64,000 nt of DNA, taken from contig JAKFCW010000116.1 in the NCBI GenBank assembly GCA_036676455.1, positions 67,555 to 131,554 of the forward strand, written 5' to 3'. Made by a program: the position numbers and the translations under genes. This DNA comes from Candidatus Sericytochromatia bacterium (lineage in GTDB: Bacteria; Cyanobacteriota; Sericytochromatia; S15B-MN24; UBA4093). The notes beneath the pieces were generated by a model, which saw only the letters and a program-made list of their open reading frames with translations, had not been told where the DNA came from and did no database searches. Of this stretch, positions 2,927 through 28,518 are shown one piece after another; position 1 is the first letter of the stretch, and every line of letters starts with the position of its first letter.

Positions 2927-4249
2927 ATGTCTCACATCGCGCATGACTCCAGTGCATCGCCTCCCAAACCGGAGGTCTCGGTCACCCTGAAGCGTGACGG
3001 GCTTGAAGCGTGGATCGCCGTCACTCCGCCTACCCCCGTCCCCCTGGCCGAACTCGAGGAGCGGATCCAGCAGTGTGGCGTCAGCCGTGGGCTCGACCGC
3101 GACCTGCTCAGACGAATTGCTGGAGATCCTCCTGAAACGCCCGTGCTGATTGCCAAGGGAAGGCTTCCCCAATCCGGGGCTCCCGCTCGTATCGACTACG
3201 TTTTCCAAGCACCACCGAGCGTCGGCATCGAAGCCGTCACCGAACTGGCCCGAGTCGATTTCCACGATGGCCATGTCACTCAGGTCCTGCAGGGGCAGGT
3301 CTTGGCCCGCAAGACCCCGGCAACTGCAGGGACTCCAGGATACACCGTGACCGGCCAGGTTCTCCCCGCCACCCTTGGCGCCGATGCAAACTTTGACATC
3401 GGCAAGAACGTCACCCTGAGCCAAGACAAGCTGGAGGCGCTCGCGGGTATCAGTGGTCTTCCCATGTTCGAGGGGGGCAAACTCACCATCGTTCCCGCCT
3501 TCACGGTGGGGAACGTCGACTTCTCCACCGGCAGCATCGTCTTCCAGGGTTCCGTGATCATCAAAGGAAACGTCATGGCAGGCTTCTCGGTGGTCGCCAC
3601 CGAGAACATCGAGGTGGATGGGTTTGTTGAAGGCGGAACCTTGCGAGCCGTCGGCAGCATTCACGTCAAAGGGGGTGTCCGTCAACACGCAGTGCTGGAG
3701 GCCGACCGTATCCATGCGCGCTACGTAGACACGGCCTCCACCTTGAAGGCCCTGGGAGACATCCAGATCGATAAGGATGCCGTGCAGAGCACACTGTCGG
3801 CAGGTGGCAAGATCAGCGTTGGCCAGCGCCTCGTCGGTGGCCATGCGAGCGCGGGCTCGCAGATCGAGGCGGGGCAAATCGGCCACCCGAGCGAACCCCC
3901 CACCCATGTGGAAATCGTGCTTTTCAAGGCCAGCAAGCAGTCCGAGGAGTTAAACGCCGAGATCAGCAACTTGCAAAGTGTCCTGGCCTTGGTGGAGGAA
4001 CGTCTCCAACTGGAGCAGACGACCCCGAGCGCAGCCCTGGGAAAGCTACTCCAGCAACGGATCGCGCTGGGCCTCGCGATTAAGCAGCTCGAGCTTCATC
4101 AGCAGGAACCCTGTTCCATGCCGCATATCATGGTGAAAGGTGAGATCTACCCCGGGGTCTTGCTGAGCATCCACCACACGACTCAACCGATCATGAGCAA
4201 GCTCACCGGCAAGACCTTCAAATGGACGGAAGAAGGGATCACCCACTGA
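2927..4249 (+). CDS. FapA-like DUF342 family protein (flagellar-assembly-protein-A-like beta-helix)
   Basis: 440 aa. Central region of repeated G-x-[VI] beta-helical units (…GSVIIKGNVMAGFSVVATENIEVDGFVEGGTLRAVGSIHVKGGV…) and a C-terminal coiled coil, typical of DUF342. Confidence 0.6.
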   Translation: MSHIAHDSSASPPKPEVSVTLKRDGLEAWIAVTPPTPVPLAELEERIQQCGVSRGLDRDLLRRIAGDPPETPVLIAKGRLPQSGAPARIDYVFQAPPSVGIEAVTELARVDFHDGHVTQVLQGQVLARKTPATAGTPGYTVTGQVLPATLGADANFDIGKNVTLSQDKLEALAGISGLPMFEGGKLTIVPAFTVGNVDFSTGSIVFQGSVIIKGNVMAGFSVVATENIEVDGFVEGGTLRAVGSIHVKGGVRQHAVLEADRIHARYVDTASTLKALGDIQIDKDAVQSTLSAGGKISVGQRLVGGHASAGSQIEAGQIGHPSEPPTHVEIVLFKASKQSEELNAEISNLQSVLALVEERLQLEQTTPSAALGKLLQQRIALGLAIKQLELHQQEPCSMPHIMVKGEIYPGVLLSIHHTTQPIMSKLTGKTFKWTEEGITH

Positions 4250-4488: not shown

Positions 4489-5550
4489 CTAGATCGTTTC
4501 CACGGTCCCATCGAGCAGCTCTTGTGCCTCCCAGAGGCCGACCACATCGAGCGTGCGCCTGAACCATCGCAGGCTCCCCTGGAAGATCGATTGGTAGACG
4601 TTCGTCAGGAGGGAGAAGCGATAGTCCCAGAGGCACTGCTCCCAGGCATAGTGCTTGACTCCTCGCGCCAGGAGTCGCTGGTGATAACGCCGTAGCAACG
4701 CGAGGTCGCGGCTTCGGCGGTCCGCGGCGTCAACCGACAGCAAGGCGAACATCAGGTCGTGCGGCCCCAGGCCACGTTTGACCTGGCCCCAGTCGATGAC
4801 TTTGATCGGGCTGAGCGCGTCGGGTTGCCTGGCGATGAAGACGTTGCCGAGGAGATGAAAATCGCCATGCAGCAGCGTCAGGCCACGATCGTCGACGGTA
4901 CGCTGGATGAAAGCGGCGGCCCATCGAGCGTCCAGTCGCGCGAGGAGTTGAGCTTCGCCCTCTCTGAACTCAGCTCCAAACGCCGAGCGGAACCGCGAGA
5001 CGGCAGTCCGCGCTGATGCCTCGTTTGTCCGAAGCCCCTGGGGCGGAATCGCCTGCGCCATTCGCATCACGGTGTCCTCCGGCTGGAGGAAGGCCGCGGT
5101 GTCAAGCATGGGAGACTCCCACCACTGGGCATGGAAGTCGGCCAGGGTGTCGACGAGGAGGTCAAGCCAAGCATCGGCCATGGGGGACGCGACCGGCTGA
5201 TAGCAAGTCGCGAGATCCTCGATCAAGAGCACACAGGTTTCAGCGGCGGGATCGTCGATGAGGCCGTAGAGCGAGGGGGCGATGGACAGGCGAAGTGCCG
5301 GTGTGATCCGCCGATAAGCCAGGACTTCCTGCAACCCTCCTCGCTGGTACCACTCCGGGCCATAGATCTTGCAAATCATGGTCTCGGGCATGCCCTGCGA
5401 GGTCTCGTCGCGATAACGAAGCCGGCACCGGTAGACGGCGGTGGCCAATGCGTGAAACTGTTCGCCCTCTTCCACGGCGATAACTTCGCCAGCATGCAGG
5501 AATCCACCCACATGCAGAGCTTTGATGATGGCAGCAGCGGTCGGGAACAT
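4489..5550 (-). CDS. Phosphotransferase enzyme family protein (APH/choline-kinase-like fold)
   Basis: 353 aa. Brenner-like motif HGDFHLLGNVF and a downstream IDWG motif (D-x-x-G of the APH fold). Confidence 0.7.
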   Translation of the reverse strand: MFPTAAAIIKALHVGGFLHAGEVIAVEEGEQFHALATAVYRCRLRYRDETSQGMPETMICKIYGPEWYQRGGLQEVLAYRRITPALRLSIAPSLYGLIDDPAAETCVLLIEDLATCYQPVASPMADAWLDLLVDTLADFHAQWWESPMLDTAAFLQPEDTVMRMAQAIPPQGLRTNEASARTAVSRFRSAFGAEFREGEAQLLARLDARWAAAFIQRTVDDRGLTLLHGDFHLLGNVFIARQPDALSPIKVIDWGQVKRGLGPHDLMFALLSVDAADRRSRDLALLRRYHQRLLARGVKHYAWEQCLWDYRFSLLTNVYQSIFQGSLRWFRRTLDVVGLWEAQELLDGTVETI

Positions 5551-5783
5551 GCCGCCATGGTAGCACCCCGTCCGTCACAGTGCTCGACATGCCCCCCGCA
5601 GAGGCCGAATCACCCGGGGCCCTTCCCGGGTACAATGCGCTTGGTTGCTTGCCTTCAGCCACGCATCCCACCCGATCGGGCGAATCGGCGCCAAATCTTC
5701 AGCAGAACTTAACCAGGATCTAACCCTTGCGAAGGACGTAGCGGCGACAATTCAAGCAGCAAGAGGTGAGGGGAGAGGGAATT

Positions 5784-6778
5784 TGCGCAAGATCACGGTA
5801 CTCGTCAACCGCGCGGCCCGCAACGGCTGCGATCGCCGTCGGCTCGACGCGATTCGCCAGGAATTCGCCGATAGCGACCTGACCATCCACACGCCCGACT
5901 CCTACGAGGCGCTCATCCAGGCCGCCAAGGACACGACCACCGACGGCACCGACCTCGTCATCGTCGTCGGCGGAGACGGCACCGTCAACGCAGTCGCCAA
6001 CCAGCTCGCCCACAGCCCCGTCCCCCTGGGCATCGTCCCCGCCGGCACCGCCAACGACCTCGCCACCCTGCTCGGCATCCCCGTCAACCCCCGCAAGGCC
6101 TGCCGCGTCATCAGCCAGGGCGCCGCCACCCCCATCGACCTCATCCGCGTCAACGGCCGCTACTTCGCCACCGCCGGCGGTCTCGGCGTCCTCAGCGACA
6201 CCGCCGTGGGAGTCAACCTCCTGAAAGCCCGCGAAGGCGCCGTCCGCAAGACCACCAAGCTGCTCGGCAGCCTCGTCTACGTGCTTTACAGCTTCATGCT
6301 GCTGCTGTTCTCGCGCCGGATCCTCAGCGACTTCACGATCACGCTGGACGGAGAGGACCTCGGCACCATGCGCTCCGTGGCCCTCTTCGTGAACAACCAG
6401 CCCACCATCGGCAAACTGGTCGTCTCGTGCCCCGATGCCAAGGTGACCGACGGCAAGCTCGGGCTCTGCGTCATGCGCGAGCGCAACCGCCTCCAGTCCA
6501 TCTTCACCGTCATCCTGATGAGCCTCAAGGGCACGCATACCCGCCGCAAGGACATCGTGATGCGCGACGGAGCGACCCTGCGGATCGCCTCGCCCGAGCC
6601 CAAGGTCTTCATCGGCGACGGAGAAGTGCTGGCCGAGACGACCGACCTGTCGATCAGCGTCGTGCCCCTGGCCCTGCGCGTGATCTCGGGACGGCTACTT
6701 GCGGATGACGCCTACCTCGAGGTTCGCGTAAAGGAAGGCGCGGTCCCGCGTCAAGAGCTCGGCGCCGCGTTCCGCTAA
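5784..6778 (+). CDS. Diacylglycerol-kinase catalytic-domain lipid kinase (YegS/BmrU-like)
   Basis: DAGK_cat signature (…LVIVVGGDGTVNAVANQL…PLGIVPAGTANDLA…). The ORF track starts at 5645. A likely TTG/GTG start near 5784 is preceded by GGGAGAGGG. The 3' end overlaps the convergent gene by 84 nt. Confidence 0.65.
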
Positions 6779-7852
6779 CCGCTCGAGCTGAGGCACCTCC
6801 GAGGGAATCGCCCGCGCCAAGAGCGTGTTCCAGTTGGCCATGCGGGCGCCGTTACGCCCCGTGCGCACGATCTCCTCGTGCAGCCGAACGAAGATCGGGG
6901 TCTGGATCCAGTCGAAGAGGTTGGAGACGTTGAACCGCGTGAACGTGTCATCGGGCACGCTCAGGAGGTACTGCTCGATCTCGCCGGTGACGATCTCCAC
7001 GCGGTCGACCCGCGCGCGCATCGTCTCGAAGTTCTCGCGCGCCAGGTACGCCGGCAGGTTGTCCTCGTCGAGGTAGCGCCCCAGCAGGATCAGCGCCAGG
7101 AAGTAGTTGCTGCGCGACGGGATGCGCGTGAAGGCATGCTCGGCTCGGCCCCGGAAGATCTTGCCGAAGTCCCGGAAGTCCACCAGCCGGAAATGCTCCT
7201 TGTCCTTGGTCCGCGTCATCACCGTCCGGCTGAAGAAGACGTCGAACATGGTCCGCCAGAGCGGCCCGTCGATCTCACGGTCGTAATACGTGCGCTGCGC
7301 GTCCAGCGACTCGCATGCGAAGAAGCGCATGATCCGCTTCTTGCCGTAAAGCAGGCGCATGAGCGATCCGAAGGCCAGAAGGTAACGTTCCAGGCGGCCT
7401 GCCACCAGAACCCCTCGGTCGAGCAGCTTCACATTCGCGTCCCAGAACGCCTGAGCCTCCGGCGAAAGGTCACCGCGTAGCTTCTGGTAAAGCGCGTTGC
7501 TGCGCTTCGAGGGGCAAACGCCGAGGATCTCGAGCATCTCGCCGTGGTCGAGGGCCTTGAACGCGGCAATCTTGAGGCGCAGCAAGTGGTTCTGGCTGGC
7601 GTTGAAGTCGAGGGCGACGACCCTTGCTGGGTCGTGACGCAAGAGGTCGAGGGTATTGCAGCCCCCCGAGGTGATCGAGAAGCAGACATCCCCGGGGCCG
7701 ACCTGTAAGGCCTCCTGGAGAATCGCCGGATCCTCCCAGCAGTTGCTGTAACCGATGCTCTTGAAGAAGGGACGGTCCGCGACCTCGCTGCGAAGCGTCC
7801 GGGTGGCAAACGTGGAAGGCTGGGGGGCTTGCGCAGAAAGGGTATCGGTCAC
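6695..7852 (-). CDS. DUF3419/BtaA-like protein (putative SAM-dependent 3-amino-3-carboxypropyl transferase, betaine-lipid synthase family)
   Basis: 385 aa, GTG start at 7852. Recalled resemblance to BtaA-family proteins (…GYSNCWEDP…CFSITSGGCNTLDLL… glycine-rich SAM-fold-like segment). The assignment is from memory and needs confirmation. Confidence 0.45.
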   Translation of the reverse strand: MTDTLSAQAPQPSTFATRTLRSEVADRPFFKSIGYSNCWEDPAILQEALQVGPGDVCFSITSGGCNTLDLLRHDPARVVALDFNASQNHLLRLKIAAFKALDHGEMLEILGVCPSKRSNALYQKLRGDLSPEAQAFWDANVKLLDRGVLVAGRLERYLLAFGSLMRLLYGKKRIMRFFACESLDAQRTYYDREIDGPLWRTMFDVFFSRTVMTRTKDKEHFRLVDFRDFGKIFRGRAEHAFTRIPSRSNYFLALILLGRYLDEDNLPAYLARENFETMRARVDRVEIVTGEIEQYLLSVPDDTFTRFNVSNLFDWIQTPIFVRLHEEIVRTGRNGARMANWNTLLARAIPSEVPQLERLAERGAELLTRDRAFLYANLEVGVIRK

Positions 7853-8005
7853 GGTCGCATCTCTCGCTTTTCTACTTTCTAGCCGCCGGCGCTAGTCAGG
7901 AGACTTGTACCACGAAGGAAGCCTCCCTTAGCATGCTGACTTCAAGCTTTCATTCAGGCCACCAACCGGGTAAAACTAGGAAGTGACGTCCAGAGAGGAG
8001 TTTCA

Positions 8006-8953
8006 ATGGCCACCCAAGCGGTCACCTTGCCCTTCATCAAGCGCTTCAAGCTATACCTCGACGAGCGCTTCCCGCTCGCGACCCACCTGGTGGTCGTCCT
8101 CGCCTTCTTCTTCAGCAGCTACCTGCTCTCCGAGCGGCTGCTGCGGCCGGGAGAGTCGCTGTTCGGATTGCAGGCGATCGCCGGCATGGTCACCGTCCTC
8201 TTCGCCCTCTTCTTCCTGCGCGTCCTCGACGAGTTCAAGGACTACGAAAAGGACCTCGTCGGACACCCCGACCGCATCGTCTCCCAGGGCATCATGCCGC
8301 TCTCCGAGCTCAAGGTCATCGGCCTCGTCGTCGTGGGCGCCATGCTCGCCCTCAACGCCCTGGTCGGCCTGCACGCACTGGCAGCTTGTCTGGTTGTCAT
8401 CGGCTTCGCGCTGTTGATGTTCAAGGAGTTCTTCGTCGGCGAATGGCTGAACAAGCACCTCGTCGTCTACGCGTTGACGCATCAGCTCATCACTCCACTG
8501 ATCTGTCTTTATGTTTACATGCTGGTCGCCTTCCCCACCGGCGGGGGCTGGAACCCCTGGTTCTGGCTGCAGCTGGCCATGGGCGCCGGCACCGGCCTCG
8601 GCTGGGAGATGTCCCGCAAGATCCGCTTCCCCGAGGAAGAGCATGAGCAGGTCGACACCTACTCCAAGCACTTCGGCTACGAAGCCGCCTCGGCCCTCGC
8701 CTTCACCATCCTCATGGCCGGAGCCCTCTGCGCCCTCGCCCTCGCGCTCGTGCTGCGCTTCCCCCCCTACGTCTTCGTGATCTTCGTCCTGGGCCTGACC
8801 GCCGCCGAGATCGGCTTCGTGCGCTTCTGGCGCAAGCCCACCGCCAAGGGCGCCCGCAAGCTAGGCGACTGGGCCGCCGTCATGATGCTCACCAGCTACC
8901 TCACCATCGCGCTCGGCTCGCTGGCCGGGCAGGCCTTCCACCTCGCGTTCTAG
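8006..8953 (+). CDS. Polytopic membrane protein, UbiA-prenyltransferase-like
   Basis: 315 aa with about 9 predicted TM helices. Asp-rich loop LDEFKDYEKD after TM2 and an acidic loop (EEEHEQVD) after TM6, resembling the two UbiA-family motifs. RBS AGAGGAG before ATG 8006. It is the first gene of a six-gene operon. Confidence 0.4.
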   Translation: MATQAVTLPFIKRFKLYLDERFPLATHLVVVLAFFFSSYLLSERLLRPGESLFGLQAIAGMVTVLFALFFLRVLDEFKDYEKDLVGHPDRIVSQGIMPLSELKVIGLVVVGAMLALNALVGLHALAACLVVIGFALLMFKEFFVGEWLNKHLVVYALTHQLITPLICLYVYMLVAFPTGGGWNPWFWLQLAMGAGTGLGWEMSRKIRFPEEEHEQVDTYSKHFGYEAASALAFTILMAGALCALALALVLRFPPYVFVIFVLGLTAAEIGFVRFWRKPTAKGARKLGDWAAVMMLTSYLTIALGSLAGQAFHLAF

Positions 8954-8977
8954 CGCCGCTTTGATAGGAGACCCCTC

Positions 8978-11662
8978 ATGACCCTCTCGCCACAGGCGCT
9001 CAGCCCGACGCAATCCCCTACCGAACGCGAGCTCGGCGGCAAGGCCGCCAACCTCACGATCCTCGCCGCCCAGGGCTTCCCCGTCCCGCGCTTCGTGACG
9101 GTTCCCGTGTCCACCTTCCGCGCGTTCATGCGCGACGCGGCCCTCTACGACCCCATCCGATCCCTCCTCGCCGAGCTGGACTTCAAGCGCCCCGAGGCCG
9201 TATCGACAGCCAGCCGCACCATTCACGGCATGATCACCTCGCAGGCGATCCCCCCGACCCTGCACGCACCGATCCTCCGCGACGCCCAGGACTTCGGCGA
9301 CGCCTTCGTCGCCGTGCGCTCCTCCGCTCTGGGTGAGGACGGCAGCAAGGACTCGTTCGCCGGTCAGATGGACTCCTTCCTCTTCGTGCGGGGCGAAGAC
9401 GCCATCCTCGACTCGGTCCGCGCCTGCTGGGCCTCGGCATTCTCAGAGCGCGCGCTGAGCTACCGGCACATGAGGGGCGTGGATGTCCTGGCCATCGACA
9501 TCGCGGTCGTGATCCAGGAGATGGTCCACCCCGAGGTCTCGGGCGTCATGTTCACCGCCGATCCCCTCACGGGCGATCGCGACCTCATCGTCATCAACGG
9601 CACCTATGGCGCCGGCGAGGGCATCGTCTCGGGCGCCCTCGACACCGACTCCTTCAAGGTCTCCAAGACCTCCCGCGAGGTCACCACCGAGCTGGTCTCC
9701 AAGCCCACGATGTTCGCCTTCGACTCCCAGCGCGGCCAGGGCACCCTCGAGGTTCCCGTCCCGATCGCCCTCCAGGAGGCCGCCTGCCTGACAAGCGAGC
9801 AAGCCCAGGAGCTGGCGCGGCTGGGAGCGGCCATCGAGGCGCACTACGGCGCTCCCCAGGACATCGAGTGGGCACTCAGCGAGGGCCGGCTCTTCATCCT
9901 GCAATCCCGCCCCATCACCAACCTCAAGGTCCCGCAGGCCACGATCGGCCGCGAAATCGTCTGGGACAACTCCAACATCACCGAGTCCTACTCGGGCGTC
10001 ACCTCTCCGCTGACCTTCTCGTTCGCCTCGCAGGCCTACAACATCGTCTACAACCAGGTCTGCCGCGCCCTGGGAATCTCCGACGACGTGATCCGCCAGA
10101 ACGAGCAGACCTACCGCAACCTCTTGGGACTCGTGCGCGGACGGGTCTTCTACAACCTCGGCAACTGGTACCAGATGACCTCCCTGCTGCCCGGCTTCAA
10201 CTACAACAAGGGCTTCATGGAGCAGATGATGGGCGTCAAGGAGAAAGGCGTCCATCAGAAGGAAAAGAAGGACTACCGCGAGCTTCCCAAGCTCCTGATG
10301 GTCGTCTTCCGGATGCTCGATCACTACCGCAAGATCGACGGCACCGTGGCCGGCTTCCAGGCAAACTTCAACACGGCCTACGGCGAGTACAAGACCTTCG
10401 ACTGGAAGGCCATGCGCCCCGACGAGATCAAGGTCTGCTACCACGATCTCGAGCAGCGCCTCTTGTGGCGCTGGCAGGCCCCCATCCTCACCGACATCTC
10501 GGCGATGGTCTTCTACGGCGTCCTGAAGAAGCTCTGCGTCGCCTGGTGCGGCGACGAGTCCGGCTCGCTGCAAAACGACCTCTTGTGCGGCGAGGGCGAG
10601 ATCGAGTCCACCGAGCCCACCAAGGCCATCATGCGCATGGCGATCGCCGCCAAGGCCGACCCCAGCCTCAAGGCCTTCTTCGAGCAGACCCCCGACACCG
10701 AGATCTGGAGCCAGCTTCGCGGCACGGAGCGCTTCCCCGACATGCGCGCGCAGGTCCAGGACTTCCTCGACAAGTACGGCTACCGCTGCATGAACGAGCT
10801 CAAGCTCGAGGAGAAAAACCTCAAGGAAGACCCCAGCTTCGTCTTCGCCATGGTCAAGAACTACCTCAAGATGGAGAAGCTGGACATCGCCGCCATGGAG
10901 GCCAACGAGCGCAAGATCCGCGAGCAGGCCGAGCAGCTCGTCAAGGAGAAGCTGGGTGGCAACCCCTTACGCCTGGCGGTCTTCCGCTGGGTGGTCTTCA
11001 ACGCCCGCCGCCACGTCAAGAACCGCGAGAACATGCGCTTCGCGCGCACCAAGATCTTCGGCATCCTGCGCGACATGTTCCAGTCCATCGGCGCCACCTT
11101 CGCGGCCTGGGACGTCCTCGACGACTCGCAGGACATCTTCTACCTGAACCTCGAGGAAATCTGGGGCTACATCCAGGGCACGGCCACCAGCACCAACCTC
11201 AAGGGCCTGGCCGCCCTGCGCAAGGCCGAGTTCGACCGCTACCGCCAGGAAGACGTCGACGACCGCTTCAAGACCTTTGGAACGGTCCACCACGCCAACC
11301 ACTTCGAGGGCGATCGCTCCAGCGAACCCGACGACCCGAACCTCCTCAAGGGCATCAGCTGCTGCCCCGGCGTCGTCAAGACGACCGTGCGCGTCATCCG
11401 CTCGCCGGAAGACGACATGAGCCTCAACGGCCAGATCCTGGTCGCCGAGCGCACCGATCCCGGCTGGGTGCCGCTTTACCCCGCAGCTTCCGGGTTGCTC
11501 ATCGAGCGCGGCAGCATCCTCAGCCACTCGGCCATCGTCGCCCGAGAGCTGGGCCTTCCCACCATCGTGGGCATCAAGAACCTGACCAAGCGCGTCAAGG
11601 ACGGCCAGCTCGTCGAGATGGACGCCCGCCTGGGCATCGTCCGCCTCAACCCGGAGCCCTGA
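8978..11662 (+). CDS. PEP-utilising enzyme family protein, with an N-terminal PEP-synthase/PPDK ATP-grasp domain and a C-terminal swivel phosphohistidine domain (rifampicin-phosphotransferase-like architecture)
   Basis: 894 aa. N-terminus GGKAANLTIL…VAVRSSALGEDGSKDSFAGQ (PPDK_N). C-terminus …NGQILVAERTDPGWVPLY…ILSHSAIVARELGLPTIVG (PEP-utilisers mobile domain with the catalytic His). RBS AGGAGA. Confidence 0.8.
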   Translation: MTLSPQALSPTQSPTERELGGKAANLTILAAQGFPVPRFVTVPVSTFRAFMRDAALYDPIRSLLAELDFKRPEAVSTASRTIHGMITSQAIPPTLHAPILRDAQDFGDAFVAVRSSALGEDGSKDSFAGQMDSFLFVRGEDAILDSVRACWASAFSERALSYRHMRGVDVLAIDIAVVIQEMVHPEVSGVMFTADPLTGDRDLIVINGTYGAGEGIVSGALDTDSFKVSKTSREVTTELVSKPTMFAFDSQRGQGTLEVPVPIALQEAACLTSEQAQELARLGAAIEAHYGAPQDIEWALSEGRLFILQSRPITNLKVPQATIGREIVWDNSNITESYSGVTSPLTFSFASQAYNIVYNQVCRALGISDDVIRQNEQTYRNLLGLVRGRVFYNLGNWYQMTSLLPGFNYNKGFMEQMMGVKEKGVHQKEKKDYRELPKLLMVVFRMLDHYRKIDGTVAGFQANFNTAYGEYKTFDWKAMRPDEIKVCYHDLEQRLLWRWQAPILTDISAMVFYGVLKKLCVAWCGDESGSLQNDLLCGEGEIESTEPTKAIMRMAIAAKADPSLKAFFEQTPDTEIWSQLRGTERFPDMRAQVQDFLDKYGYRCMNELKLEEKNLKEDPSFVFAMVKNYLKMEKLDIAAMEANERKIREQAEQLVKEKLGGNPLRLAVFRWVVFNARRHVKNRENMRFARTKIFGILRDMFQSIGATFAAWDVLDDSQDIFYLNLEEIWGYIQGTATSTNLKGLAALRKAEFDRYRQEDVDDRFKTFGTVHHANHFEGDRSSEPDDPNLLKGISCCPGVVKTTVRVIRSPEDDMSLNGQILVAERTDPGWVPLYPAASGLLIERGSILSHSAIVARELGLPTIVGIKNLTKRVKDGQLVEMDARLGIVRLNPEP

Positions 11663-12756
11663 TGCACGTCGCGCACAGCACGGACCTCCGGGACTCCGCC
11701 TTCCGGGAAGCCTTCATCGGGCTTCCCTACCGGCTGCACCGGGGGGATCGCGCATGGATCCCCCCGTTCCGGAACGCCATGCGCGCGCAACTAGCCCCCG
11801 ACGCCGCCTTCACCCGGCACGGCGACTGGGGCCACTTCCTCGCCTACGACGGCAAGACCCCCGTCGCCCGCTGCTCGGCCATGATCAACCCGCGCTACGA
11901 ACAGGGCCTCGGCTTCGTGGGCTACTTCGAGGCTGCGGACGACTTCAAGGCCTCGGAAGCCGTCCTCTCGGCGGCCGTCGACTGGCTGCGCGAGCGCGGC
12001 GTCACGACCATCCGCGGCCCCATCAACACCAGCACCTACTTCCCGTATCGCTTCATGACCGAGGGCTTCGAGCATGGGGCCTTCTTCCTGGAGCCCTACA
12101 ACCCCCGCCACTACCCCGAGCACTGGCTGCGCTTCGGCTTCACGGCCTGCTGCGGCTACTCCTCGTCCATCGTCGACTCGGCCCGCTTCGCGGCCGGGAC
12201 CAAGCGCCACCACGAACGGGCCGTGGCCGCGGGCTACCAGGCGCGCCCCTTCGACCCGTCGCGCTTCGACTCCGAGCTGCGGCTCATGTACGACCTGTCC
12301 ACGGCCATCTTCCAGGGCTCCTGGATGTGGCGGCCGGTGGAGTTCTCGGAGTTCAAGCTCCTCTACGCCGGCATGCGCGGCATCATGGACCCCGACCTCT
12401 GCTACTTCCTCTTCCAGGCTGAGACGCCCGTCGGCTTCGTCTTCGGGCTGCCGGACTTCGCCCCGGCCATCCGGAGCATGAACGGCAGTCAATCGCTCTG
12501 GGCGAAGGCCCGCTTCGTGATGAAGCGCCGCGAGACGCCCGCGGCCCTCTTGAAAACGTTCGGAGTGCTTCCCGACCACCGCAACGGCTCGCTGGCCCTG
12601 TCGCTCTCGCACCTCATGCACGACGCGGCCGCCCGCAAGGGCTACGCCAGGACCGTTCACTCCCTGATGCGAGACGACAACACCAGCCTCCGGATGTCTC
12701 AGCGCTTCGGCGGCGAGACCTTCAAGCGCTACGCCCTCTACGAGCTGGAGGCCTGA
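11662..12756 (+). CDS. Acyl-CoA N-acyltransferase with a C-terminal GNAT domain and an N-terminal domain of unknown function
   Basis: 364 aa. The ATG overlaps the upstream stop (TGATG). The C-terminal GNAT motif A (…VLPDHRNGSLALSLSHLMHDAAARKGYARTVHSLMRDDNTSLRMSQRFGG…) is assigned from memory; the N-terminal ~200 aa are unassigned. The 962-aa ORF 9868..12756 in the track is an out-of-frame artefact that happens to merge into this frame. Confidence 0.55.
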   Translation: MHVAHSTDLRDSAFREAFIGLPYRLHRGDRAWIPPFRNAMRAQLAPDAAFTRHGDWGHFLAYDGKTPVARCSAMINPRYEQGLGFVGYFEAADDFKASEAVLSAAVDWLRERGVTTIRGPINTSTYFPYRFMTEGFEHGAFFLEPYNPRHYPEHWLRFGFTACCGYSSSIVDSARFAAGTKRHHERAVAAGYQARPFDPSRFDSELRLMYDLSTAIFQGSWMWRPVEFSEFKLLYAGMRGIMDPDLCYFLFQAETPVGFVFGLPDFAPAIRSMNGSQSLWAKARFVMKRRETPAALLKTFGVLPDHRNGSLALSLSHLMHDAAARKGYARTVHSLMRDDNTSLRMSQRFGGETFKRYALYELEA

Positions 12757-12760
12757 GCCC

Positions 12761-14422
12761 ATGCAACGCCTTTTCACCCACTCGAACGTCATCGGCTACC
12801 TCGACCACTGGGCCGCCGTGACCCCCGACCAGCCCGCCGTCGTCTTCCCGAAACAGTCGCGCCCGGACGCTCAGCACCCCCTGGGCGTCGCGCTCGACTA
12901 CGACACGGTCAGTTTCGCCGAGCTGAGCCGCCGCGTGAACCGCCTCGCGGCCTCGCTGAGCACCCGCGGCTTGTCCCAAGGCGATCGCGTGGTCGTCATG
13001 ATCCCCATGAGCCTCGAGCTCTACACCCTGCTCCTGGCCCTCTTGAAGCTGGGCGTGATCATCGTCTTCATCGACCCGTGGGTGGGCCTGCCTCAGATCA
13101 AGCGCTGCATCGCGCTCACCGAGCCCAAGGCCTTTGCCGGCATCCCCATGATCCAGTTGCTGGGCCGCCTCACCGGAGTGCTCTCCCCCATCCCCCTGCG
13201 CCTGACCGCCCGCGGTCCCGCCCGGCTCGGCGAGCTCCAGCTGGAACGCCTACTAAACGAGGATCACCCTCCCGTGAGCACCCGGGAAGTCTCGCCGGAG
13301 GATACCGCCCTGGTCACCTTCACCACGGGCAGCACGGGCATCCCCAAGGGCTCCAACCGCACCCACGGGTTCTTGATGGCCCAGCACCGGGCGCTGGCGC
13401 GGGAGATGGGCTTGCGGGCGGGGGAAAAGGACCTCACGACCCTGCCCATCTTCGTGCTGAACAACCTGGCCGCCGGGGTGACCAGCGTGCTGCCGATGAT
13501 GAAGTCGTCCAAGCCCTCGGAGGTCGATCCCCGGGTCATCCTGAGGCAGATCCAGGATCACGGGATCGCCACTGCCGTGGGCTCACCCGCCTACTGGAAG
13601 CCCATCGCCGACTACTGCCAGGCCAACGGCCTGCAGCTTCCCACCTTGCGCACGCTCTTCACGGGCGGAGGACCGGTGCCCCCGGGCCTGCTCGAAACCC
13701 TTCGCCCCCTGATGCCTAACGGCGAGGCCTTCATCGGCTACGGTTCCACCGAGGCCGAACCCGTCGCCCTGATCTCGGCCACGGAGGTCTGCGAGGAAAC
13801 CGGCGCCCTGACCCGCGAGGGGCTCGGCAACTGCGTCGGCAAGCCCGCCCATGGCATCCGCCTCAAGGTCATCCGGATCGTCGACGGTCCCGTCACCGTG
13901 GGCCCTGACGGCCTCTCCGCCCTCGAGCTGCCCGCAGGGGAAAACGGCGAGCTGGTCGTGACCGGCGATCACGTCGGCAAGGACTACTACCGCAACCCCG
14001 AGGCCGTGCGCGAGAACAAGATCACGGACGCCGACGGCACCATCTGGCACCGCCTGGGCGACGTGGGCTACCTCGACACCACGGGGCGCATCTGGCTGAC
14101 GGGACGCGTGAACAACCTGATCGCGCACGGCACGCGCACGCTCTACCCGATCCAGGTGGAGGCCCTCGTCCACCAGCTCGACTTCGTGGGCAAGGCCGCC
14201 GTCCTGAACCACCGGGACAAGCTCTTGCTGGCGCTCAGCCCGGTGGAATGGGGCGATCGCCGGCAGCGCCGAACCTGGGAGGAAGCCCTGCACGCGCACA
14301 TGCTCCTCAACGGGATCCCCCTGGACCGGGTCGTCTTCCTCCGGAAGATGCCCGTGGATCCCCGCCACAACGTCAAGATCGATTACGCGAAGCTGAAACG
14401 GCGCTTGAGCCGAGAATTCTAG
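12761..14422 (+). CDS. AMP-dependent synthetase/ligase (ANL adenylate-forming enzyme, possibly a fatty-acyl-AMP/CoA ligase)
   Basis: 553 aa. Core motif TSGSTGIPKG, followed by YGSTE and the hinge D residue. It begins 5 nt after the upstream gene. Confidence 0.85.
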   Translation: MQRLFTHSNVIGYLDHWAAVTPDQPAVVFPKQSRPDAQHPLGVALDYDTVSFAELSRRVNRLAASLSTRGLSQGDRVVVMIPMSLELYTLLLALLKLGVIIVFIDPWVGLPQIKRCIALTEPKAFAGIPMIQLLGRLTGVLSPIPLRLTARGPARLGELQLERLLNEDHPPVSTREVSPEDTALVTFTTGSTGIPKGSNRTHGFLMAQHRALAREMGLRAGEKDLTTLPIFVLNNLAAGVTSVLPMMKSSKPSEVDPRVILRQIQDHGIATAVGSPAYWKPIADYCQANGLQLPTLRTLFTGGGPVPPGLLETLRPLMPNGEAFIGYGSTEAEPVALISATEVCEETGALTREGLGNCVGKPAHGIRLKVIRIVDGPVTVGPDGLSALELPAGENGELVVTGDHVGKDYYRNPEAVRENKITDADGTIWHRLGDVGYLDTTGRIWLTGRVNNLIAHGTRTLYPIQVEALVHQLDFVGKAAVLNHRDKLLLALSPVEWGDRRQRRTWEEALHAHMLLNGIPLDRVVFLRKMPVDPRHNVKIDYAKLKRRLSREF

Positions 14423-14433
14423 GAGGAGCCCCC

Positions 14434-16683
14434 ATGCTCAAAGGTCGCTTCGCCAGGCTGGGCGCCTGGCTCTACCGCCGAAGGCTCGCCGTCATCGGCT
14501 TCTGGGTGATCGCCGTCATCGTCGCGAGCCTGGGCTCCGCGCGCATCACCGAGGTGCTTTCGGGAGGCACCGGAGGCATCGCCGGCAGCCAGTCGGATCG
14601 CGTCGAGCGCATCCTCGGCACCGAGTTCGAGAATCCCTACTCCCAGGTGCTGGTGCTGGTGGCCAAGAGCGACCGCCAGACCGTGGACGATCCGACCTTC
14701 AAGCAGTTCCTGGCCGACGCCACCTCCCGCCTGAAGGCGCACCCGGCGGTCTCGGACGTCACCGCCTACCCGGAGGCCGACGACGTCCGCTTGCTATCCG
14801 ACGACCGGCGCGAGACCTTCGCCTTCGTGGGCCTGAAGGCCCGCGACGTACGCGGCTCCGAGAGGGCCGTGCAGCCCATCCGCGAGGCCGTCCGGGCCGC
14901 CGGCGAGGCCGCCCGCAAGCAGGATCCCAGCTTCGAGTGGCACGTCACCGGCCGCGGCGCCCTGACCTACGACATCAACCAGTTCAGCACCGAGGACACC
15001 ACCCGGGCCGAGACCCGGAGCATGCCCCTGACCATGTTGGTGCTGCTGCTGGCCTTCGGCACCCTGATGGCCGCGGGCGTGCCCCTGATCATGGGGGCCT
15101 TCGCCATCGTGATCACCCAGGGCCTGCTTTACCTGGTGGCCGGCAACATCGAGCTGACGGCCTTCGCCCAGAGCGTGTCGACCATGCTCGGCCTCGCCAT
15201 GGGCATCGACTACTCGCTGTTGATGGTCAACCGCTTCCGCGACGCGCTCGCCCGGGGGCTGGAGACGGCCCAGGCGGTGGAGGAGACGGTGGCAACGGCG
15301 GGCGTGGCCGTGCTCTTCTCGGGGCTGACCGTGCTGATCGGCTTCACCGGCCTGGTCGCCACGCCCATCCTCGACACCCGCTCCATCGGCTGGGGCGGCT
15401 TCATCGTCGTGATCGGCTCGGTGACCCTCGCCCTCACCCTGCTTCCGGCCATCCTGGGAGTGCTCGGGCCGCGCGTGGACTCGCCCCGCTGGCTGAAGCT
15501 GCCGACGCTTGCCAGCCAGCAAGCCACCTGGCGCGCCTGGGCGCAGCGGATCATGAAGCGCCCCGTGCCCTACGGACTCACGGCAATGGTCCTGCTCTTG
15601 GCGCTGAGCTGGCCGGCGGCAACCATCAAGCTCGGCTTCCCCGAGGGCCGCTGGCTGCCGGAACGCCTTGAGTACCAGCAGGGCTTCGACGCCCTGATCG
15701 CCATGGACAAGGGGGGCGTGGTCGCGCCCATCCACTTGATCCTGAAGACCGACCAGGAGGCCCTGAGCCTGAAGACCCTGCCGGCCCTGATGGCCTACTC
15801 GCGCGACCTCGCCCGGGACCCGCGGGTGGCCGAGGTGGCGGGCCCCGTCGACCTGCGCCGGGACCTGGGGGCGGCCCAGTACTTCATGCTCTACCGCGAC
15901 CTGGACGAAGCCATCCGGCAGTACCCCTTGCTCGGGCAGCTCTTCCTGAGCCGCGATCGCCAGACGACCTACATGTACCTCACCCTCAAGGACGACGTGG
16001 CCTTCGAGGAGACCAAGCGTTTCGCCAGGGAGCTGGAGAGCAAGGCTCCGGCGGGCTTCACGGTGCTGGTGGGCGGGCAGGCGTCCTTCTACAACGACTT
16101 CGACGCGGCGATGCTGGGGATCTACCCCTGGGTGATCGGCTTCGTCCTGCTCGCCACCTTGGTGGTGATGGCCGTGGCGTTCCGGTCCTACCTGGTTCCC
16201 GTCAAGGCGGTCCTGATGAATCTCCTCTCGGTCGGAGCCGGGTACGGCGCGGTCGTGGCGGTCTTCCAGTACGGCTGGGGGGCGGGAATCTTCGGGCTGG
16301 ACGCTCCGTCGGGGGCGATTCCCCTGAGCATCCCGTTGATGCTCTTCTGCATCATCTTCGGCCTGTCCATGGACTACGAGGTTTTCCTGCTGCATCGCAT
16401 CAAGGAGGTCTACGAGGAAACCGGGGACAATACCCATGCAACCGTGGAGGGCGTGGCCTCGACGGCCGGCATCATCACGTCGGCGGCGCTCATCATGGTC
16501 GTGGTCTTCGGGGCCTTCGCCTGGGCCGAGATGGTGATCGTGCAGATGCTGGGGCTGGGGCTGGCCGTGGCGGTGCTGGTGGACGCCACCATCATCCGCG
16601 TGCTACTGGTGCCGGCGTTCATGCGGCTGGCCGGGGACTGGAACTGGCGGGGCTTCGGACGAAAGGGACGTCATGTCGCTTAG
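14434..16683 (+). CDS. MMPL/RND-superfamily exporter (HpnN/MmpL-like, two sterol-sensing-like 6-TM bundles)
   Basis: About 749 aa from ATG 14434 (RBS GGAGGAG). Two hydrophobic 6-TM blocks separated by soluble periplasmic domains. Conserved MMPL segments …GIDYSLLMVNRFRD… and …GLSMDYEVFLLHRIKE…. Confidence 0.85.
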   Translation: MLKGRFARLGAWLYRRRLAVIGFWVIAVIVASLGSARITEVLSGGTGGIAGSQSDRVERILGTEFENPYSQVLVLVAKSDRQTVDDPTFKQFLADATSRLKAHPAVSDVTAYPEADDVRLLSDDRRETFAFVGLKARDVRGSERAVQPIREAVRAAGEAARKQDPSFEWHVTGRGALTYDINQFSTEDTTRAETRSMPLTMLVLLLAFGTLMAAGVPLIMGAFAIVITQGLLYLVAGNIELTAFAQSVSTMLGLAMGIDYSLLMVNRFRDALARGLETAQAVEETVATAGVAVLFSGLTVLIGFTGLVATPILDTRSIGWGGFIVVIGSVTLALTLLPAILGVLGPRVDSPRWLKLPTLASQQATWRAWAQRIMKRPVPYGLTAMVLLLALSWPAATIKLGFPEGRWLPERLEYQQGFDALIAMDKGGVVAPIHLILKTDQEALSLKTLPALMAYSRDLARDPRVAEVAGPVDLRRDLGAAQYFMLYRDLDEAIRQYPLLGQLFLSRDRQTTYMYLTLKDDVAFEETKRFARELESKAPAGFTVLVGGQASFYNDFDAAMLGIYPWVIGFVLLATLVVMAVAFRSYLVPVKAVLMNLLSVGAGYGAVVAVFQYGWGAGIFGLDAPSGAIPLSIPLMLFCIIFGLSMDYEVFLLHRIKEVYEETGDNTHATVEGVASTAGIITSAALIMVVVFGAFAWAEMVIVQMLGLGLAVAVLVDATIIRVLLVPAFMRLAGDWNWRGFGRKGRHVA

Positions 16684-17128
16684 AAATCTCGATTGGAAGC
16701 GCTGGGTCGACCGAGCGCTGAGCGTGGCGGCCGTGGTCATGATCGCGGTGGTGCTGGGGAAGTACTTCTGGCCGCGGGCCGGCGAGGCGGTGGACGGGGA
16801 GGCGATCGCCTTCATGACGAGCGGCCAGCCGGCCCTGGTCGAGTTCAGCCAGACCCATTGTCCCGCGTGCGTCGTGTCGCGGCCGATGGTGGCCGGCATC
16901 CGCAAGGACTACGAGGGCCGAGCCGTCGTCAAGGTCTACGAGCTCGACCGGCTGGGGGATTACCCGGAAGGCGAGGCCGTGAGGCAGCTGGCCCCAAGGC
17001 TCGGAGTGCGGGCCACGCCGACCTTCGTGGTGCTGGACGCGGCGGGCAAGCCCGTCAAGCGCTTCGTGGGGCCGACCTCGGGCCCCAGCTTGCGGCAAGC
17101 GCTCGACGAGGCCCTCGCGGCTAGGTGA
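16673..17128 (+). CDS. Membrane-anchored thioredoxin-fold protein (CPAC active site)
   Basis: 151 aa. N-terminal TM anchor, then the WCPAC-type motif (…FSQTHCPACVV…) and a thioredoxin fold (…ATPTFVVL…). It overlaps the MMPL stop by 11 nt. Confidence 0.75.
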   Translation: MSLRNLDWKRWVDRALSVAAVVMIAVVLGKYFWPRAGEAVDGEAIAFMTSGQPALVEFSQTHCPACVVSRPMVAGIRKDYEGRAVVKVYELDRLGDYPEGEAVRQLAPRLGVRATPTFVVLDAAGKPVKRFVGPTSGPSLRQALDEALAAR

Positions 17129-17274
17129 GCGGCCGCACCTCTGCTATCATGGGGATTCAACCAAGTGACTAAGAGCGCCTAACAAAACTGTTCCTTCGAG
17201 CCGCCCCCGGCGGCCACCGGTCGTAACATGCCTGGTTTTGTTAGATGCTCAGAGAGATTCGGAGCATCGCCACC

Positions 17275-21522: not shown

Positions 21523-21604
21523 GGAGGGTATCCGAATGGTGAGGAGGCGCACTCGAAATGCGTTGCCCCGTAAGGGGTTGGGGGTTCGAGTCCCCTGCCC
21601 TCCG
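21523..21604 (+). tRNA. tRNA-Ser (anticodon CGA), class II with long variable arm
   Basis: A hand fold gives a consistent class-II cloverleaf: acceptor GGAGGGT/GCCCTCC; anticodon stem GCGCA/TGCGT with loop CTCGAAA (anticodon CGA); variable-arm stem-loop GCCCC-GTAA-GGGG; T-arm GGGGG-TTCGAGT-CCCCT; discriminator G; CCA not encoded. The D-arm fold is slightly irregular. Confidence 0.7.
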
Positions 21605-21613
21605 CTCCCACCA
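21551..21613 (+). repeat. attL: 63-bp direct repeat (tRNA-Ser 3' half from the anticodon loop through the 3' end plus 9 bp)
   Basis: ACTCGAAATGCGTTGCCCCGTAAGGGGTTGGGGGTTCGAGTCCCCTGCCCTCCGCTCCCACCA recurs exactly at 31902-31964. Confidence 0.85.
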
Positions 21614-21619
21614 ACACTA

Positions 21620-21660
21620 GATTTGAGCCCCTTGACCGATTCGGTCAGGGGGCTCAAATC
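21620..21660 (+). terminator. Long hairpin after the tRNA (TTTGAGCCCCttgaccgattcggtcaGGGGGCTCAAA)
   Basis: Inverted repeat read directly. A structurally analogous but sequence-diverged hairpin follows the attR copy (31971-32010). Confidence 0.5.
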
Positions 21661-21696
21661 TTGGCGGTTGCAAACATTCTGCAAACATTCTCGTTT

Positions 21697-22875
21697 TCAC
21701 CCGCTCCGGGAATTAGTTCTGACGGCCTGGTAAGCGGCATCCAATAACTCCATGGCTTGCTCTTGCGCCCCCGGCATGAGGTGCCCGTAGACATCCATGG
21801 TCGTGGAAACCTTGGAGTGCCCGAGACGCTTGCTAACGGTGAGGGGATCGATCTTCAGGTTGATGAGCTGCGAGGCATGAGTGTGCCGGAGTTCATGAAG
21901 CCGGAGCGGCGGAAGGCCCGCCTTCTTGAGCAATGGCTTCAAGCACTTGGTGAGGGCCATGGGGTTACACGGCGTACCGTCTGAGCTAGCGAGGACCAAG
22001 CCATGGTCTTGGTAGCCTGGACCGAACATGAGCCTTTGGCGGGCTTGCTCGGCCCGGTGCTGCTTTAGTGCCTCGACGGCCATGGCGGGAAGCGAGATTG
22101 TCCGGCGACTCCCGGCGGTCTTTGGCTCCTTGAAGCGAAACCCTCCGGCCTTCGTGACCTCCACCGCCTGATGAACGGTGAGATACCGGCGAGTAAGGTC
22201 TAGGTCTTGCCAGCGAAGCGCCGCAAGTTCGCCCCTGCGGAGCCCCGTCGTGACCGCCAAGACGATCGCGGTGTAGTGGGGGGACTCCTTGGCGACCTCC
22301 AGGAGCTTGTCCGCGTCCTCCTGACTCAGTGCCCGCATTTCACGTTCAGAGGCCCGTGGCGGCGTCACATCATCGGCCGGGTTCCGAGGTAGCAAGCGCC
22401 ACGTGACCGCTTGCTGTAGAGCGCAACGGAGGACCCTGTGATGATACAGGACCGTACTGGAGGAGAGCCCTCCCTTGCCATCCCGGCGACCGGTCTTTAA
22501 CGCCTCCGCATAGTATTTCTGAATGTGCGCTGGGCGGAGTTTCTCCATTCTCAATTGACCGAGTTGCGGTATGAGATGGGTGTGGACGATCTCAGCATAT
22601 CGCTCATAAGTCTTGGGTTGGACGTTCAGTGCCGCGCAATCCCGAAGCCATCGAGTCAAGAAATCACCAAGAGTCTCCCGGCCAGGCTCTACGAATTGCC
22701 CTGTATGAAGTTCATGGAGAAGCCGTGCAAGTTCGCGTTCGGCGTCTCGCTTTGTCCCATCAAACTTGACCGTTACTTGATTTCGGCCGCCATCCGCCTT
22801 CCGCTCCCCGTCATAAATGATATGCCATTTGTTTTTGTTGTTCTTACCTCTGCGCTGTCTGATATGTCCCTTCAT
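21697..22875 (-). CDS. int: Tyrosine-type site-specific integrase (phage integrase family)
   Basis: 392 aa. N-terminal SAM-like and core-binding domains. C-terminal catalytic domain with R…HELRHTHAS…Y (…LHELRHTHASQLI…VYGHL…). Adjacent to the tRNA. Confidence 0.9.
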   Translation of the reverse strand: MKGHIRQRRGKNNKNKWHIIYDGERKADGGRNQVTVKFDGTKRDAERELARLLHELHTGQFVEPGRETLGDFLTRWLRDCAALNVQPKTYERYAEIVHTHLIPQLGQLRMEKLRPAHIQKYYAEALKTGRRDGKGGLSSSTVLYHHRVLRCALQQAVTWRLLPRNPADDVTPPRASEREMRALSQEDADKLLEVAKESPHYTAIVLAVTTGLRRGELAALRWQDLDLTRRYLTVHQAVEVTKAGGFRFKEPKTAGSRRTISLPAMAVEALKQHRAEQARQRLMFGPGYQDHGLVLASSDGTPCNPMALTKCLKPLLKKAGLPPLRLHELRHTHASQLINLKIDPLTVSKRLGHSKVSTTMDVYGHLMPGAQEQAMELLDAAYQAVRTNSRSG

Positions 22876-24005: not shown

Positions 24006-24020
24006 TCTCGTCCTCAACTA

Positions 24021-24054
24021 TGTAGATATCAATTAGCTAGTTGAACGATCTACA
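24021..24054. promoter_or_regulatory. Inverted repeat TGTAGAT-N20-ATCTACA in the divergent promoter region, a candidate operator for the adjacent XRE regulator
   Basis: 7-bp perfect inverted repeat read directly. It lies between the divergently transcribed island genes. Confidence 0.35.
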
Positions 24055-24114
24055 AAGCAACCTTACCATTACCGTTGTAAAGGAACAAGCCCTACTTAAA
24101 GGAGGCATGTGGAA

Positions 24115-26207: not shown

Positions 26208-26214
26208 TTACAGG

Positions 26215-26595: not shown

Positions 26596-26603
26596 CTTTC
26601 CTC

Positions 26604-27554: not shown

Positions 27555-27563
27555 TTCGGACGC

Positions 27564-28503: not shown

Positions 28504-28518
28504 ATCCAAAGCGCCGTC

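Follow-up and report, generated by a model that had tools for sequence, protein, structure and literature searches.

Organisation of the gene cluster

We analysed a 64,000-nucleotide (nt) stretch of DNA, hereafter the window, from a Candidatus Sericytochromatia bacterium (assembly GCA_036676455.1, contig JAKFCW010000116.1, positions 67,555 to 131,554 of the forward strand). Our subject is a candidate biosynthetic cassette at 5.78–17.13 kb of the window, in which a lipid kinase gene and a DUF3419 gene stand upstream of six co-oriented genes, here named g1 to g6. The features of the cluster are as follows, with protein lengths in amino acids (aa).

5783–6778, + strand: lipid kinase gene, soluble DAGK_cat/YegS_C type
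6695–7852, − strand: DUF3419 gene, BtaA-like enzyme dependent on S-adenosylmethionine (SAM)
7853–8005: divergent intergenic region, presumed promoter and control region between the DUF3419 gene and g1
8006–8953, + strand: g1, 315 aa, divergent UbiA-fold membrane transferase with nine helices
8978–11662, + strand: g2, 894 aa, three-domain ATP-dependent phosphohistidine dikinase of Rph/PigC architecture
11662–12756, + strand: g3, 364 aa, tandem-repeat GNAT acyl-CoA N-acyltransferase
12761–14422, + strand: g4, 553 aa, ANL-superfamily adenylating enzyme of the PRK09274 / OleC-related branch
14434–16683, + strand: g5, 749 aa, MMPL-family resistance-nodulation-division (RND) transporter
16673–17128, + strand: g6, 151 aa, membrane-anchored thioredoxin-fold protein with a CPAC motif

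A preliminary description of this DNA had proposed that six co-oriented genes abut or overlap at 8006–17128, and both the open reading frames (ORFs) and their junctions were confirmed. The domains that it had predicted for all six proteins were likewise verified by Pfam and NCBIfam profile searches. A gap of 24 nt separates g1 from g2, g2 and g3 overlap by 1 nt in a TGATG, g3 and g4 are 4 nt apart, g4 and g5 are 11 nt apart, and g5 and g6 overlap by 11 nt, with a Shine-Dalgarno-like motif 5–10 nt ahead of each of the six starts. The ORF of g5 opens at 14248, but its start is likely ATG 14434, because GGAGGA precedes this codon and the resulting length of 749 aa is also that of the orthologues in locus L001, another Sericytochromatia locus. 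Downstream of g6 lie genes for an EngB-type GTPase and then a dCache histidine kinase, as they do in L001, and the unit therefore ends at g6.

Three terminator sites were returned within the operon by a consensus scan, against 6.1 expected by chance in shuffled sequence, and none is credible; a consensus sigma-70 promoter scan gave no matches, the 7853–8005 region included. In this divergent region, the blocks CAGGAGCCTTGTACCACG, GCTTTCATTC and GGGTAAAACTAGG..GTGAC are kept in an alignment of the window with the Sericytochromatia loci L007 and L001. No observation speaks against transcription of g1 to g6 as one unit, and the gene arrangement suggests that they are co-transcribed. The window has a G+C content of ∼65%, and Rfam gave no match near the operon. 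Just 3′ of g6, at 17170–17255, a long imperfect inverted repeat (GAGCGCCTAACAAAAC...GTTTTGTTAGATGCTC) surrounds a GC hairpin (GCCGCCCCCGGCGGC) and may be terminator-like, although Rfam gives no match to it and its stability does not differ significantly from that of shuffled sequence (z −1.3).

The lipid kinase ORF opens at 5645, and TTG 5783, which stands behind GGGGAGAGGG, is most likely its start. The kinase and DUF3419 genes are convergent and their 3′ ends overlap by 84 nt (6695–6778), while the DUF3419 gene is divergent from g1. A similar kinase/DUF3419 overlap, of 81 nt, is found in L001 (5030–5110). The overlap could represent antisense coupling or mere compaction.

The gene set is conserved across distant bacteria

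The distribution of the cluster was determined by scanning one genome per species with an alignment of 11 g3 sequences, which yielded 57 loci, and by mapping genes in these loci with tblastn and jackhmmer for each reference protein. All four of g1 to g4 are co-located in 29 distinct loci, the window included, and in two further loci from cultured strains. The 29 loci belong to Sericytochromatia, Acidobacteriota (Thermoanaerobaculia), Verrucomicrobiota, Planctomycetota, Lentisphaerota, Legionellales, Rhodobacteraceae, Thermodesulfobacteriota and Deinococcota; Brevibacillus laterosporus B9 is a carrier from Bacillota. In all, the cassette spans more than ten bacterial phyla. Co-occurrence of the dikinase, GNAT and ligase genes, for which a neighbourhood check had been proposed, is thus conserved far beyond close relatives. 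Two adjacencies are constant throughout the 29 loci: g2 comes directly after g1, and g4 after g3. The DUF3419 gene is present in 16 of them, a stand-alone HMG-CoA reductase (HMGR) gene in seven, and a P450 or MMPL transporter gene sometimes accompanies the core pairs.

Within Sericytochromatia, L001 and L007 have an identical eight-gene layout (kinase, DUF3419, g1 to g6), with 63–89% protein identity. The g3 homologue of L007 (isolate LC028) is 83% identical, and that of L008 (S15B-MN24) is also from Candidatus Sericytochromatia. Gene order changes with distance: locus L005 (42–53% identity) carries kinase, DUF3419, UbiA, dikinase, GNAT and ligase genes with an MMPL gene upstream, and L006 (35–46% identity) has the order GNAT-ligase-UbiA-dikinase, with genes for a 450-aa membrane protein, DUF3419 and an MMPL protein on the opposite strand. 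Three carriers are cultured. Deinobacterium chartae, which accounts for one of the 29 loci, has the order UbiA-dikinase-DUF3419-428 aa-GNAT-ligase. In Roseinatronobacter sp. S2 the cassette lies on a 137-kb plasmid (NZ_CP121116, about 128.2–136.2 kb), where the RefSeq names are generic only. The eight genes of B. laterosporus B9 (about 463.5–474.7 kb of NZ_CP011076) stand in the order HMGR-UbiA-dikinase-DUF3419-439 aa-GNAT-ligase-P450 with overlapping gene boundaries. Synechococcus sp. CS-1328 has a reduced version. Metagenomic sequences include predicted fusions of an AMP-binding domain to a g1-type UbiA protein (P0192 and P0196, 855 and 815 aa) and of a g1-type UbiA protein to PPDK_N (P0219, 475 aa, probably truncated).

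In the B. laterosporus B9 locus (L068, NZ_CP011076, 1589–20115), the P450 gene is an extra, translationally coupled member, and its product best matches terpene-oxidising P450s. The upstream flank has an ABC exporter and two genes for FecCD iron-siderophore permeases, the downstream flank an ETX/MTX2 toxin gene.

These comparisons redraw the unit that had been proposed. The six-gene operon is real, but the conserved unit consists of the GNAT, AMP-ligase, UbiA and dikinase genes, variably joined by DUF3419, kinase-type and HMGR genes. As judged from sequence, the core comprises three pairs: UbiA with the dikinase, the tandem GNAT with an OleC/FACL-like enzyme, and DUF3419 with a lipid-kinase-type protein. 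The component superfamilies are all known and the combination is undescribed. No account of the cassette came to light in full-text literature searches, and the NCBIfam and RefSeq names are generic only, in agreement with the earlier statement that the set is not recognisable as a named pathway.

A UbiA-fold transferase with an altered second motif

The g1 protein scores 31 bits against Pfam UbiA (PF01040), just below the gathering score of 34.2; several of its homologues reach 34.8–42.5 bits, and NCBIfam PRK13592 matches g1 at 1.9e-27. Its resemblance to UbiA prenyltransferases, for which structure prediction had been suggested as a check, was upheld by an AlphaFold2 model (pLDDT 93) with nine long helices. 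The best Foldseek matches are the DGGGP synthase structures 6m31/7bpu, ApUbiA 4od4, a membrane PRTase and UBIAD1, with TM-scores of 0.63–0.77 to 6m31/7bpu and 4od4. The Foldseek list also includes the eukaryotic HMGCR-UBIAD1 complex (8djk), which we mention as a curiosity only.

A profile of the g1 family finds digeranylgeranylglyceryl phosphate synthase (DGGGPS) as its best Protein Data Bank match (3.5e-6), followed by chlorophyll synthase, both of the O-prenylating branch. The first Asp-rich motif of g1, LDEFKDYEKD...PDR.., aligns with the NDIFDIEIDRINKPSRP motif of DGGGPS, and D75, D79, D83, R90 and R94 show little or no variation among 23 homologues. The canonical second DxxxD is missing from the g1 family, which has E201-x-x-R204-K205...E212...D-T-Y in its place. 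Archaeal DGGGPS and chlorophyll synthase are the best matches of g1 by both sequence profile and structure, but g1 is only about 15% identical, differs in its second motif (ExxRK...E), and has no GGGPS/PcrB partner in the cassette. At E ≤ 1e-30, the g1-type branch comprises 1,429 representatives of 50% identity clusters.

A dikinase outside the characterised families

The g2 protein contains PPDK_N (residues 18–318, 1e-88) and PEP-utilizers (residues 818–885, 1e-22) Pfam domains. The rifampicin-phosphotransferase-like architecture previously ascribed to it was borne out: as in Rph and PigC/RedH, ATP-grasp, middle and swivelling phosphohistidine domains are present together with a conserved catalytic His. 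The best Protein Data Bank match is Listeria Rph (5fbs/5hv1), and His850 of g2 aligns with His825, the catalytic His of that enzyme. The middle domain cannot be aligned to Rph, and a phmmer match to 5fbs covers the N- and C-terminal domains only.

In family terms, g2 belongs instead to NCBIfam NF004881, whose cutoff it passes over its full length (942.9 bits against 883, residues 11–890). This model, PRK06241.2-2, carries only the default name 'phosphoenolpyruvate synthase', and we know of no characterised member. Scores against characterised relatives are low: 381 bits against a cutoff of 999 for the Rph model NF041857 and 283 against 1700 for NF000283; 406 against 1300 for PigC and 428 against 1350 for RedH, with no other prodiginine genes in the window cluster; and 326 against 739.75 for phosphoenolpyruvate (PEP) synthase TIGR01418, with no PEP-utilizers_C domain reported. 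The Rph, PigC/RedH and PEP synthase models, and those for OleC and MmpL3 described below, all score far below their cutoffs. Assignment to a characterised housekeeping pathway, which had been named as a way to overturn the proposal, was found for no gene by the profile searches.

A tandem GNAT and an adenylating enzyme

In g3, Pfam recognises GNAT only weakly, in the C-terminal half. This half had been described as a GNAT domain fused to an unknown N-terminal domain; the GNAT assignment holds, but the N-terminal part is a second, degenerate GNAT fold. The single chain of g3 thus holds a tandem of GNAT folds, of which the C-terminal member has the acyl-CoA loop, and it matches the architecture of tandem-repeat GNATs of the MshD, MAB_4324 and clavulanate ORF14 type.

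The earlier assignment of g4 as an adenylate-forming ligase was verified by its AMP-binding domain (PF00501, 4e-52). It scores 467.6 bits over residues 8–551, its full length, against NF006754 (PRK09274, fatty acid CoA ligase family), just short of the cutoff of 478, and the next best models, those for OleC, give 317 bits against 900 and 271 against 850. Homologues of oleA, oleB and oleD are absent from the window cluster. Close to its 3′ end, at 62136–62951 (− strand), the window encodes another AMP-binding protein, a distant homologue with 26% identity to g4 over 322 aa.

DUF3419, kinase-type proteins and HMG-CoA reductase

A convergent pair of genes for a lipid kinase and a BtaA-like DUF3419 protein had been noted upstream of the operon, and profile searches confirmed both members. 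The kinase matches DAGK_cat (4e-27) and YegS_C (1e-15) in Pfam and exceeds the cutoff of TIGR00147 (139 bits against 118.65). The DUF3419 protein matches PF11899 at 1e-71 (242.6 bits against 28.2) and has no solved relative detectable by sequence. Compared with two BtaA-type proteins whose genes have BtaB-like partners, it is about 26–29% identical and retains Y..CWED, the SGGxN glycine loop and D82 unchanged (Y35, W39, E40, D41, G64, N66 and D82). The suggestion that this pair shares a functional neighbourhood with the operon was upheld by the recurrence of DUF3419 as a cassette member in the 16 loci, and both proteins belong to the conserved system.

The DAGK-type kinase gene occurs in six of the 29 loci and the gene for the 450-aa membrane protein in 14, with no locus having both. 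Four motifs are strongly conserved in the membrane protein (RKLVH, DAFAALIGxxYG, KSLEGS and EAISxxGxDNLFVP), but it has no Pfam, NCBIfam or Protein Data Bank match, save for DUF92 in one member: in locus L011 (Acetothermia), the C-terminal half of the 450-aa-type protein is a DUF92 domain. With hhalign, its central motif does align to the GDxxAxxxGxxxG...K..EG loop of Escherichia coli CdsA, but the probability was 0.08% only, and a function as polyprenol kinase was rejected as unproven.

An HMGR gene adjoins the cassette in nine loci. It directly precedes the UbiA-like gene in L058 (2807–5019), L068 (6881–9260) and L067 (1–1428), with overlapping boundaries in L058 and L068; for L067, the C-terminal part alone lies inside the fetched stretch. 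In L001, an HMGR gene takes the position upstream of the lipid kinase that FapA and APH genes hold in the window. The linked HMGR could supply mevalonate for an isoprenoid part of the product or, by analogy with fungal SidI and SidF, could contribute to an acyl part. SidI and SidF activate and install a mevalonate-derived acyl group in fungal fusarinine-type siderophores.

Lineage-specific export genes

Both export-related assignments in the preliminary description were verified. The g5 protein matches MMPL (PF03176) at 3e-77, with 260 bits over two stretches, but reaches only 267 bits against 1400 for the MmpL3 equivalog. The g6 protein matches Thioredoxin_2 (PF13098, 3.8e-7, 30.8 bits against 27), and its translation contains an N-terminal transmembrane segment and CPAC. 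Among the mapped loci, g5 has orthologues only in the Sericytochromatia loci L001 and L007, and g6 is confined to these two loci and the window. Next to the cassette in L005, L006, L033 and L045 stand MMPL genes that belong to different subfamilies and were recruited independently. The MMPL and thioredoxin genes of the window are lineage-specific add-ons of the Sericytochromatia version, outside the conserved core.

A parallel had been drawn with the FadD/MmpL logic by which actinobacteria export lipids or siderophores; the loci compared here are the mycobacterial ones. An adenylating enzyme and an MMPL transporter do share the operon in the window, but this is a resemblance only and the MMPL link is lineage-specific. 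The window cluster has no polyketide synthase, nonribosomal peptide synthetase (NRPS) or Pap partner, g4 is on the OleC/PRK09274 branch rather than among FadD/FAAL enzymes, and in other cassettes the MMPL gene adjoins DUF3419, not the ligase.

Flanking features of the window

Directly upstream of the lipid kinase, the window contains the following two genes.

2927–4249, + strand: FapA-family protein
4489–5550, − strand: APH/EcKL-family kinase, present in no other cassette locus

Downstream, three features lie in a region (21523–32000) with a G+C content of 0.53–0.61, against about 0.65 for the window.

21523–21604: tRNA gene
21697–22875, − strand: tyrosine-recombinase integrase
28519–29553, − strand: second integrase

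Several ORFs between the integrases have no Pfam match. From its composition and gene content, the region looks like a mobile element integrated at the tRNA gene, ∼4.4 kb past the operon and separate from it.

Comparison with described systems

In phytol salvage to tocopherol and phylloquinone, the phytol kinase VTE5 and the phytyl-phosphate kinase VTE6 (DUF92) act in turn before a UbiA-family phytyltransferase. The cassette resembles this route in having lipid-alcohol kinases that would feed a UbiA-fold transferase, and in the DUF92 domain of one of its membrane proteins. It differs in that its second ATP-using enzyme is a dikinase of the PEP-synthase/Rph type and in having no aromatic head-group genes. 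To our knowledge, dikinases of this type do not act on isoprenoid phosphates.

The betaine-lipid pathway of Rhodobacter and rhizobia, in which BtaA and BtaB make diacylglyceryl-trimethylhomoserine (DGTS), shares with the cassette a lipid context and a DUF3419 SAM enzyme with Y..CWED, SGGxN and acidic-residue motifs. It has none of the UbiA, dikinase, tandem-GNAT or ligase enzymes, and the cassette has no BtaB.

The ebo operon is reported to contain genes for a sugar-phosphate cyclase and for TatD, xylose-isomerase-like and phosphatase-like proteins beside its UbiA gene, and none of these partner genes is found in the cassette. The likeness lies in organisation: ebo (PMC5133447) is a widespread bacterial cluster of six genes, present also in eustigmatophyte plastids, that centres on a UbiA-family enzyme and has no assigned product.

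Proposed function

We think it reasonably probable that the 5.78–17.13 kb region is the Sericytochromatia version of a widespread, undescribed cassette for the biosynthesis of a membrane-associated compound, with the module roles set out here. An isoprenoid or lipid character is suggested by the proximity of g1 to DGGGPS, the HMGR genes, the DUF92 domain in L011, the terpene-type P450 and the repeated recruitment of MMPL transporters. The enzymes look intact, to judge from His850 of g2, the SAM motifs of DUF3419, the first Asp motif of g1 and the tandem fold of g3. Functional coupling is indicated by the predicted fusions and by the mutual exclusion of the DAGK-type and 450-aa proteins. The product is best inferred to be an exported compound that is isoprenoid- or lipid-linked, derived from SAM and N-acylated, and the cassette would then be a gene cluster of lipid or meroterpenoid type.

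A scheme of five steps can be sketched from these parts. The kinase-type protein, DAGK-like in the window and a polytopic 450-aa protein in other loci, and the dikinase, through phospho-His850, would phosphorylate a lipid or isoprenoid alcohol once or twice, and the DGGGPS/ChlG-like UbiA enzyme would move the hydrophobic group to an O-nucleophile. The BtaA-like enzyme would then add a SAM-derived group, most likely 3-amino-3-carboxypropyl, after which the adenylating enzyme would make an acyl-CoA with which the tandem GNAT would N-acylate the new amine. In Sericytochromatia, the last step would be extraction of the product from the inner membrane by the MMPL pump, to which the anchored thioredoxin would be accessory. 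This particular scheme is tentative, and we would put the chance of its being right in full as low.

Several observations weigh against the proposed function. The order of the steps and all of the substrate identities are inferred. Lacking a second DxxxD, g1 is not assured of prenyl-diphosphate chemistry, and the sequence of DUF3419 cannot tell aminocarboxypropyl from methyl transfer. The 450-aa protein may be a kinase, given its CdsA motif resemblance, the DUF92 link and its mutual exclusion with the DAGK type, but this is unproven; moreover, neither this protein nor HMGR is encoded anywhere in the 64-kb window. The MMPL and thioredoxin genes are not conserved beyond the Sericytochromatia lineage. 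Finally, g3 orthologues of ∼62% identity elsewhere in Sericytochromatia sit outside the cassette: in L003 (8769–11107) at the end of a MacB-type export operon (ABC/OEP/MFP), with the start overlapping the last FtsX gene, and in L004 (4884–11098) near or at the end of another such operon. Three long Acidobacteriota loci have g3 and g4 with neither g1 nor g2. From these stand-alone g3 genes and g3/g4-only loci it follows that sub-modules can probably work independently, and that the cassette is modular.

Among other explanations, betaine-lipid remodelling of the DGTS or DGHS type comes to mind from the membership of the DUF3419 protein in the BtaA family, from the residues it has in common with BtaA-type proteins that have BtaB partners, and from the adjoining lipid kinase. 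The DUF3419 protein would then act as BtaA on diacylglycerol (DAG), the kinase would tune the pools of DAG and phosphatidic acid, and the remaining genes would be accessory. We regard this as improbable, since no BtaB-type N-methyltransferase is found in the window cluster or the annotated cassettes, whereas one lies directly downstream in L069 and L070; identity to the reference BtaA-type proteins is 26–29% only; and DUF3419 travels with UbiA, dikinase, GNAT and ligase genes that DGTS synthesis does not need. A similarly small chance attaches to a lipophilic metallophore, made by an aminocarboxypropyl transferase as in nicotianamine or opine types, with a mevalonate-derived acyl group added by the ligase and GNAT and with MMPL export as for mycobactin. 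HMGR, AMP-ligase and GNAT genes do occur together in nine loci, exporters have been recruited repeatedly, and in B. laterosporus the two FecCD permease genes and the ABC exporter are found 1 kb upstream of the cassette. It is only in that locus, however, that iron-transport genes are next to the cassette; the window cluster has no gene for an N-hydroxylase, a TonB receptor or an NRPS or NIS synthetase, and the roles of the UbiA protein and the dikinase would be left unexplained.

An island for the inactivation and efflux of xenobiotics or antibiotics would draw on the same enzymes differently, with phosphorylation by the Rph-like protein, acetylation by an Eis/AAC-like tandem GNAT, pumping by the MMPL protein and the APH-like kinase at 4489–5550 as an extra resistance gene. 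It seems to us distinctly unlikely. At 381 bits, g2 falls well short of the Rph cutoff (999), and its middle, substrate-binding domain does not align to Rph; both results speak against an island of this kind, as does the restriction of the APH-like gene to the window locus, and linkage over more than ten phyla to UbiA, BtaA-like, ligase, HMGR and P450 genes, together with the fusions, would be unexpected. Chance adjacency of unrelated same-strand housekeeping genes could draw on the consensus scan, which gave no promoter or terminator, but the gene families co-occur in several orders, in many phyla, on a plasmid and as fusions. We give it almost no weight, and it is effectively refuted because the synteny is conserved. 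An anti-phage defence system was also tried and rejected, PADLOC giving no match for nine proteins.

Returning to the biosynthetic cassette, a more specific and speculative possibility is that its product belongs to a class of membrane lipids or lipophilic metabolites not seen before. A hydrophobic chain, probably isoprenoid, would be activated by a novel route, with a phosphohistidine dikinase of the PEP-synthase/Rph type acting on a lipid alcohol or lipid phosphate; the chain would be attached by a UbiA enzyme without the second motif, and the product decorated with a SAM-derived aminocarboxypropyl group that is N-acylated. We hold this with little confidence. If it is true, two enzymatic activities would be new, that of the dikinase and that of the UbiA variant, and they would be distributed over more than 1,400 bacterial protein clusters. 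If the product is a distinct lipid or lipophilic metabolite, this would provide the first functions for NF004881, for the 1,400-cluster UbiA branch, for the DUF3419 branch not linked to BtaB and for the 450-aa membrane family, and a new lipid-activation role of PEP-synthase-type dikinases could be revealed. Carriage by B. laterosporus B9, Roseinatronobacter sp. S2 and Deinobacterium chartae makes the cassette open to direct test. Production of a distinct lipid or lipophilic metabolite would explain the presence of this gene set in many little-studied groups, namely Sericytochromatia, Thermoanaerobaculia, Verrucomicrobiota, Planctomycetota and Legionellales.

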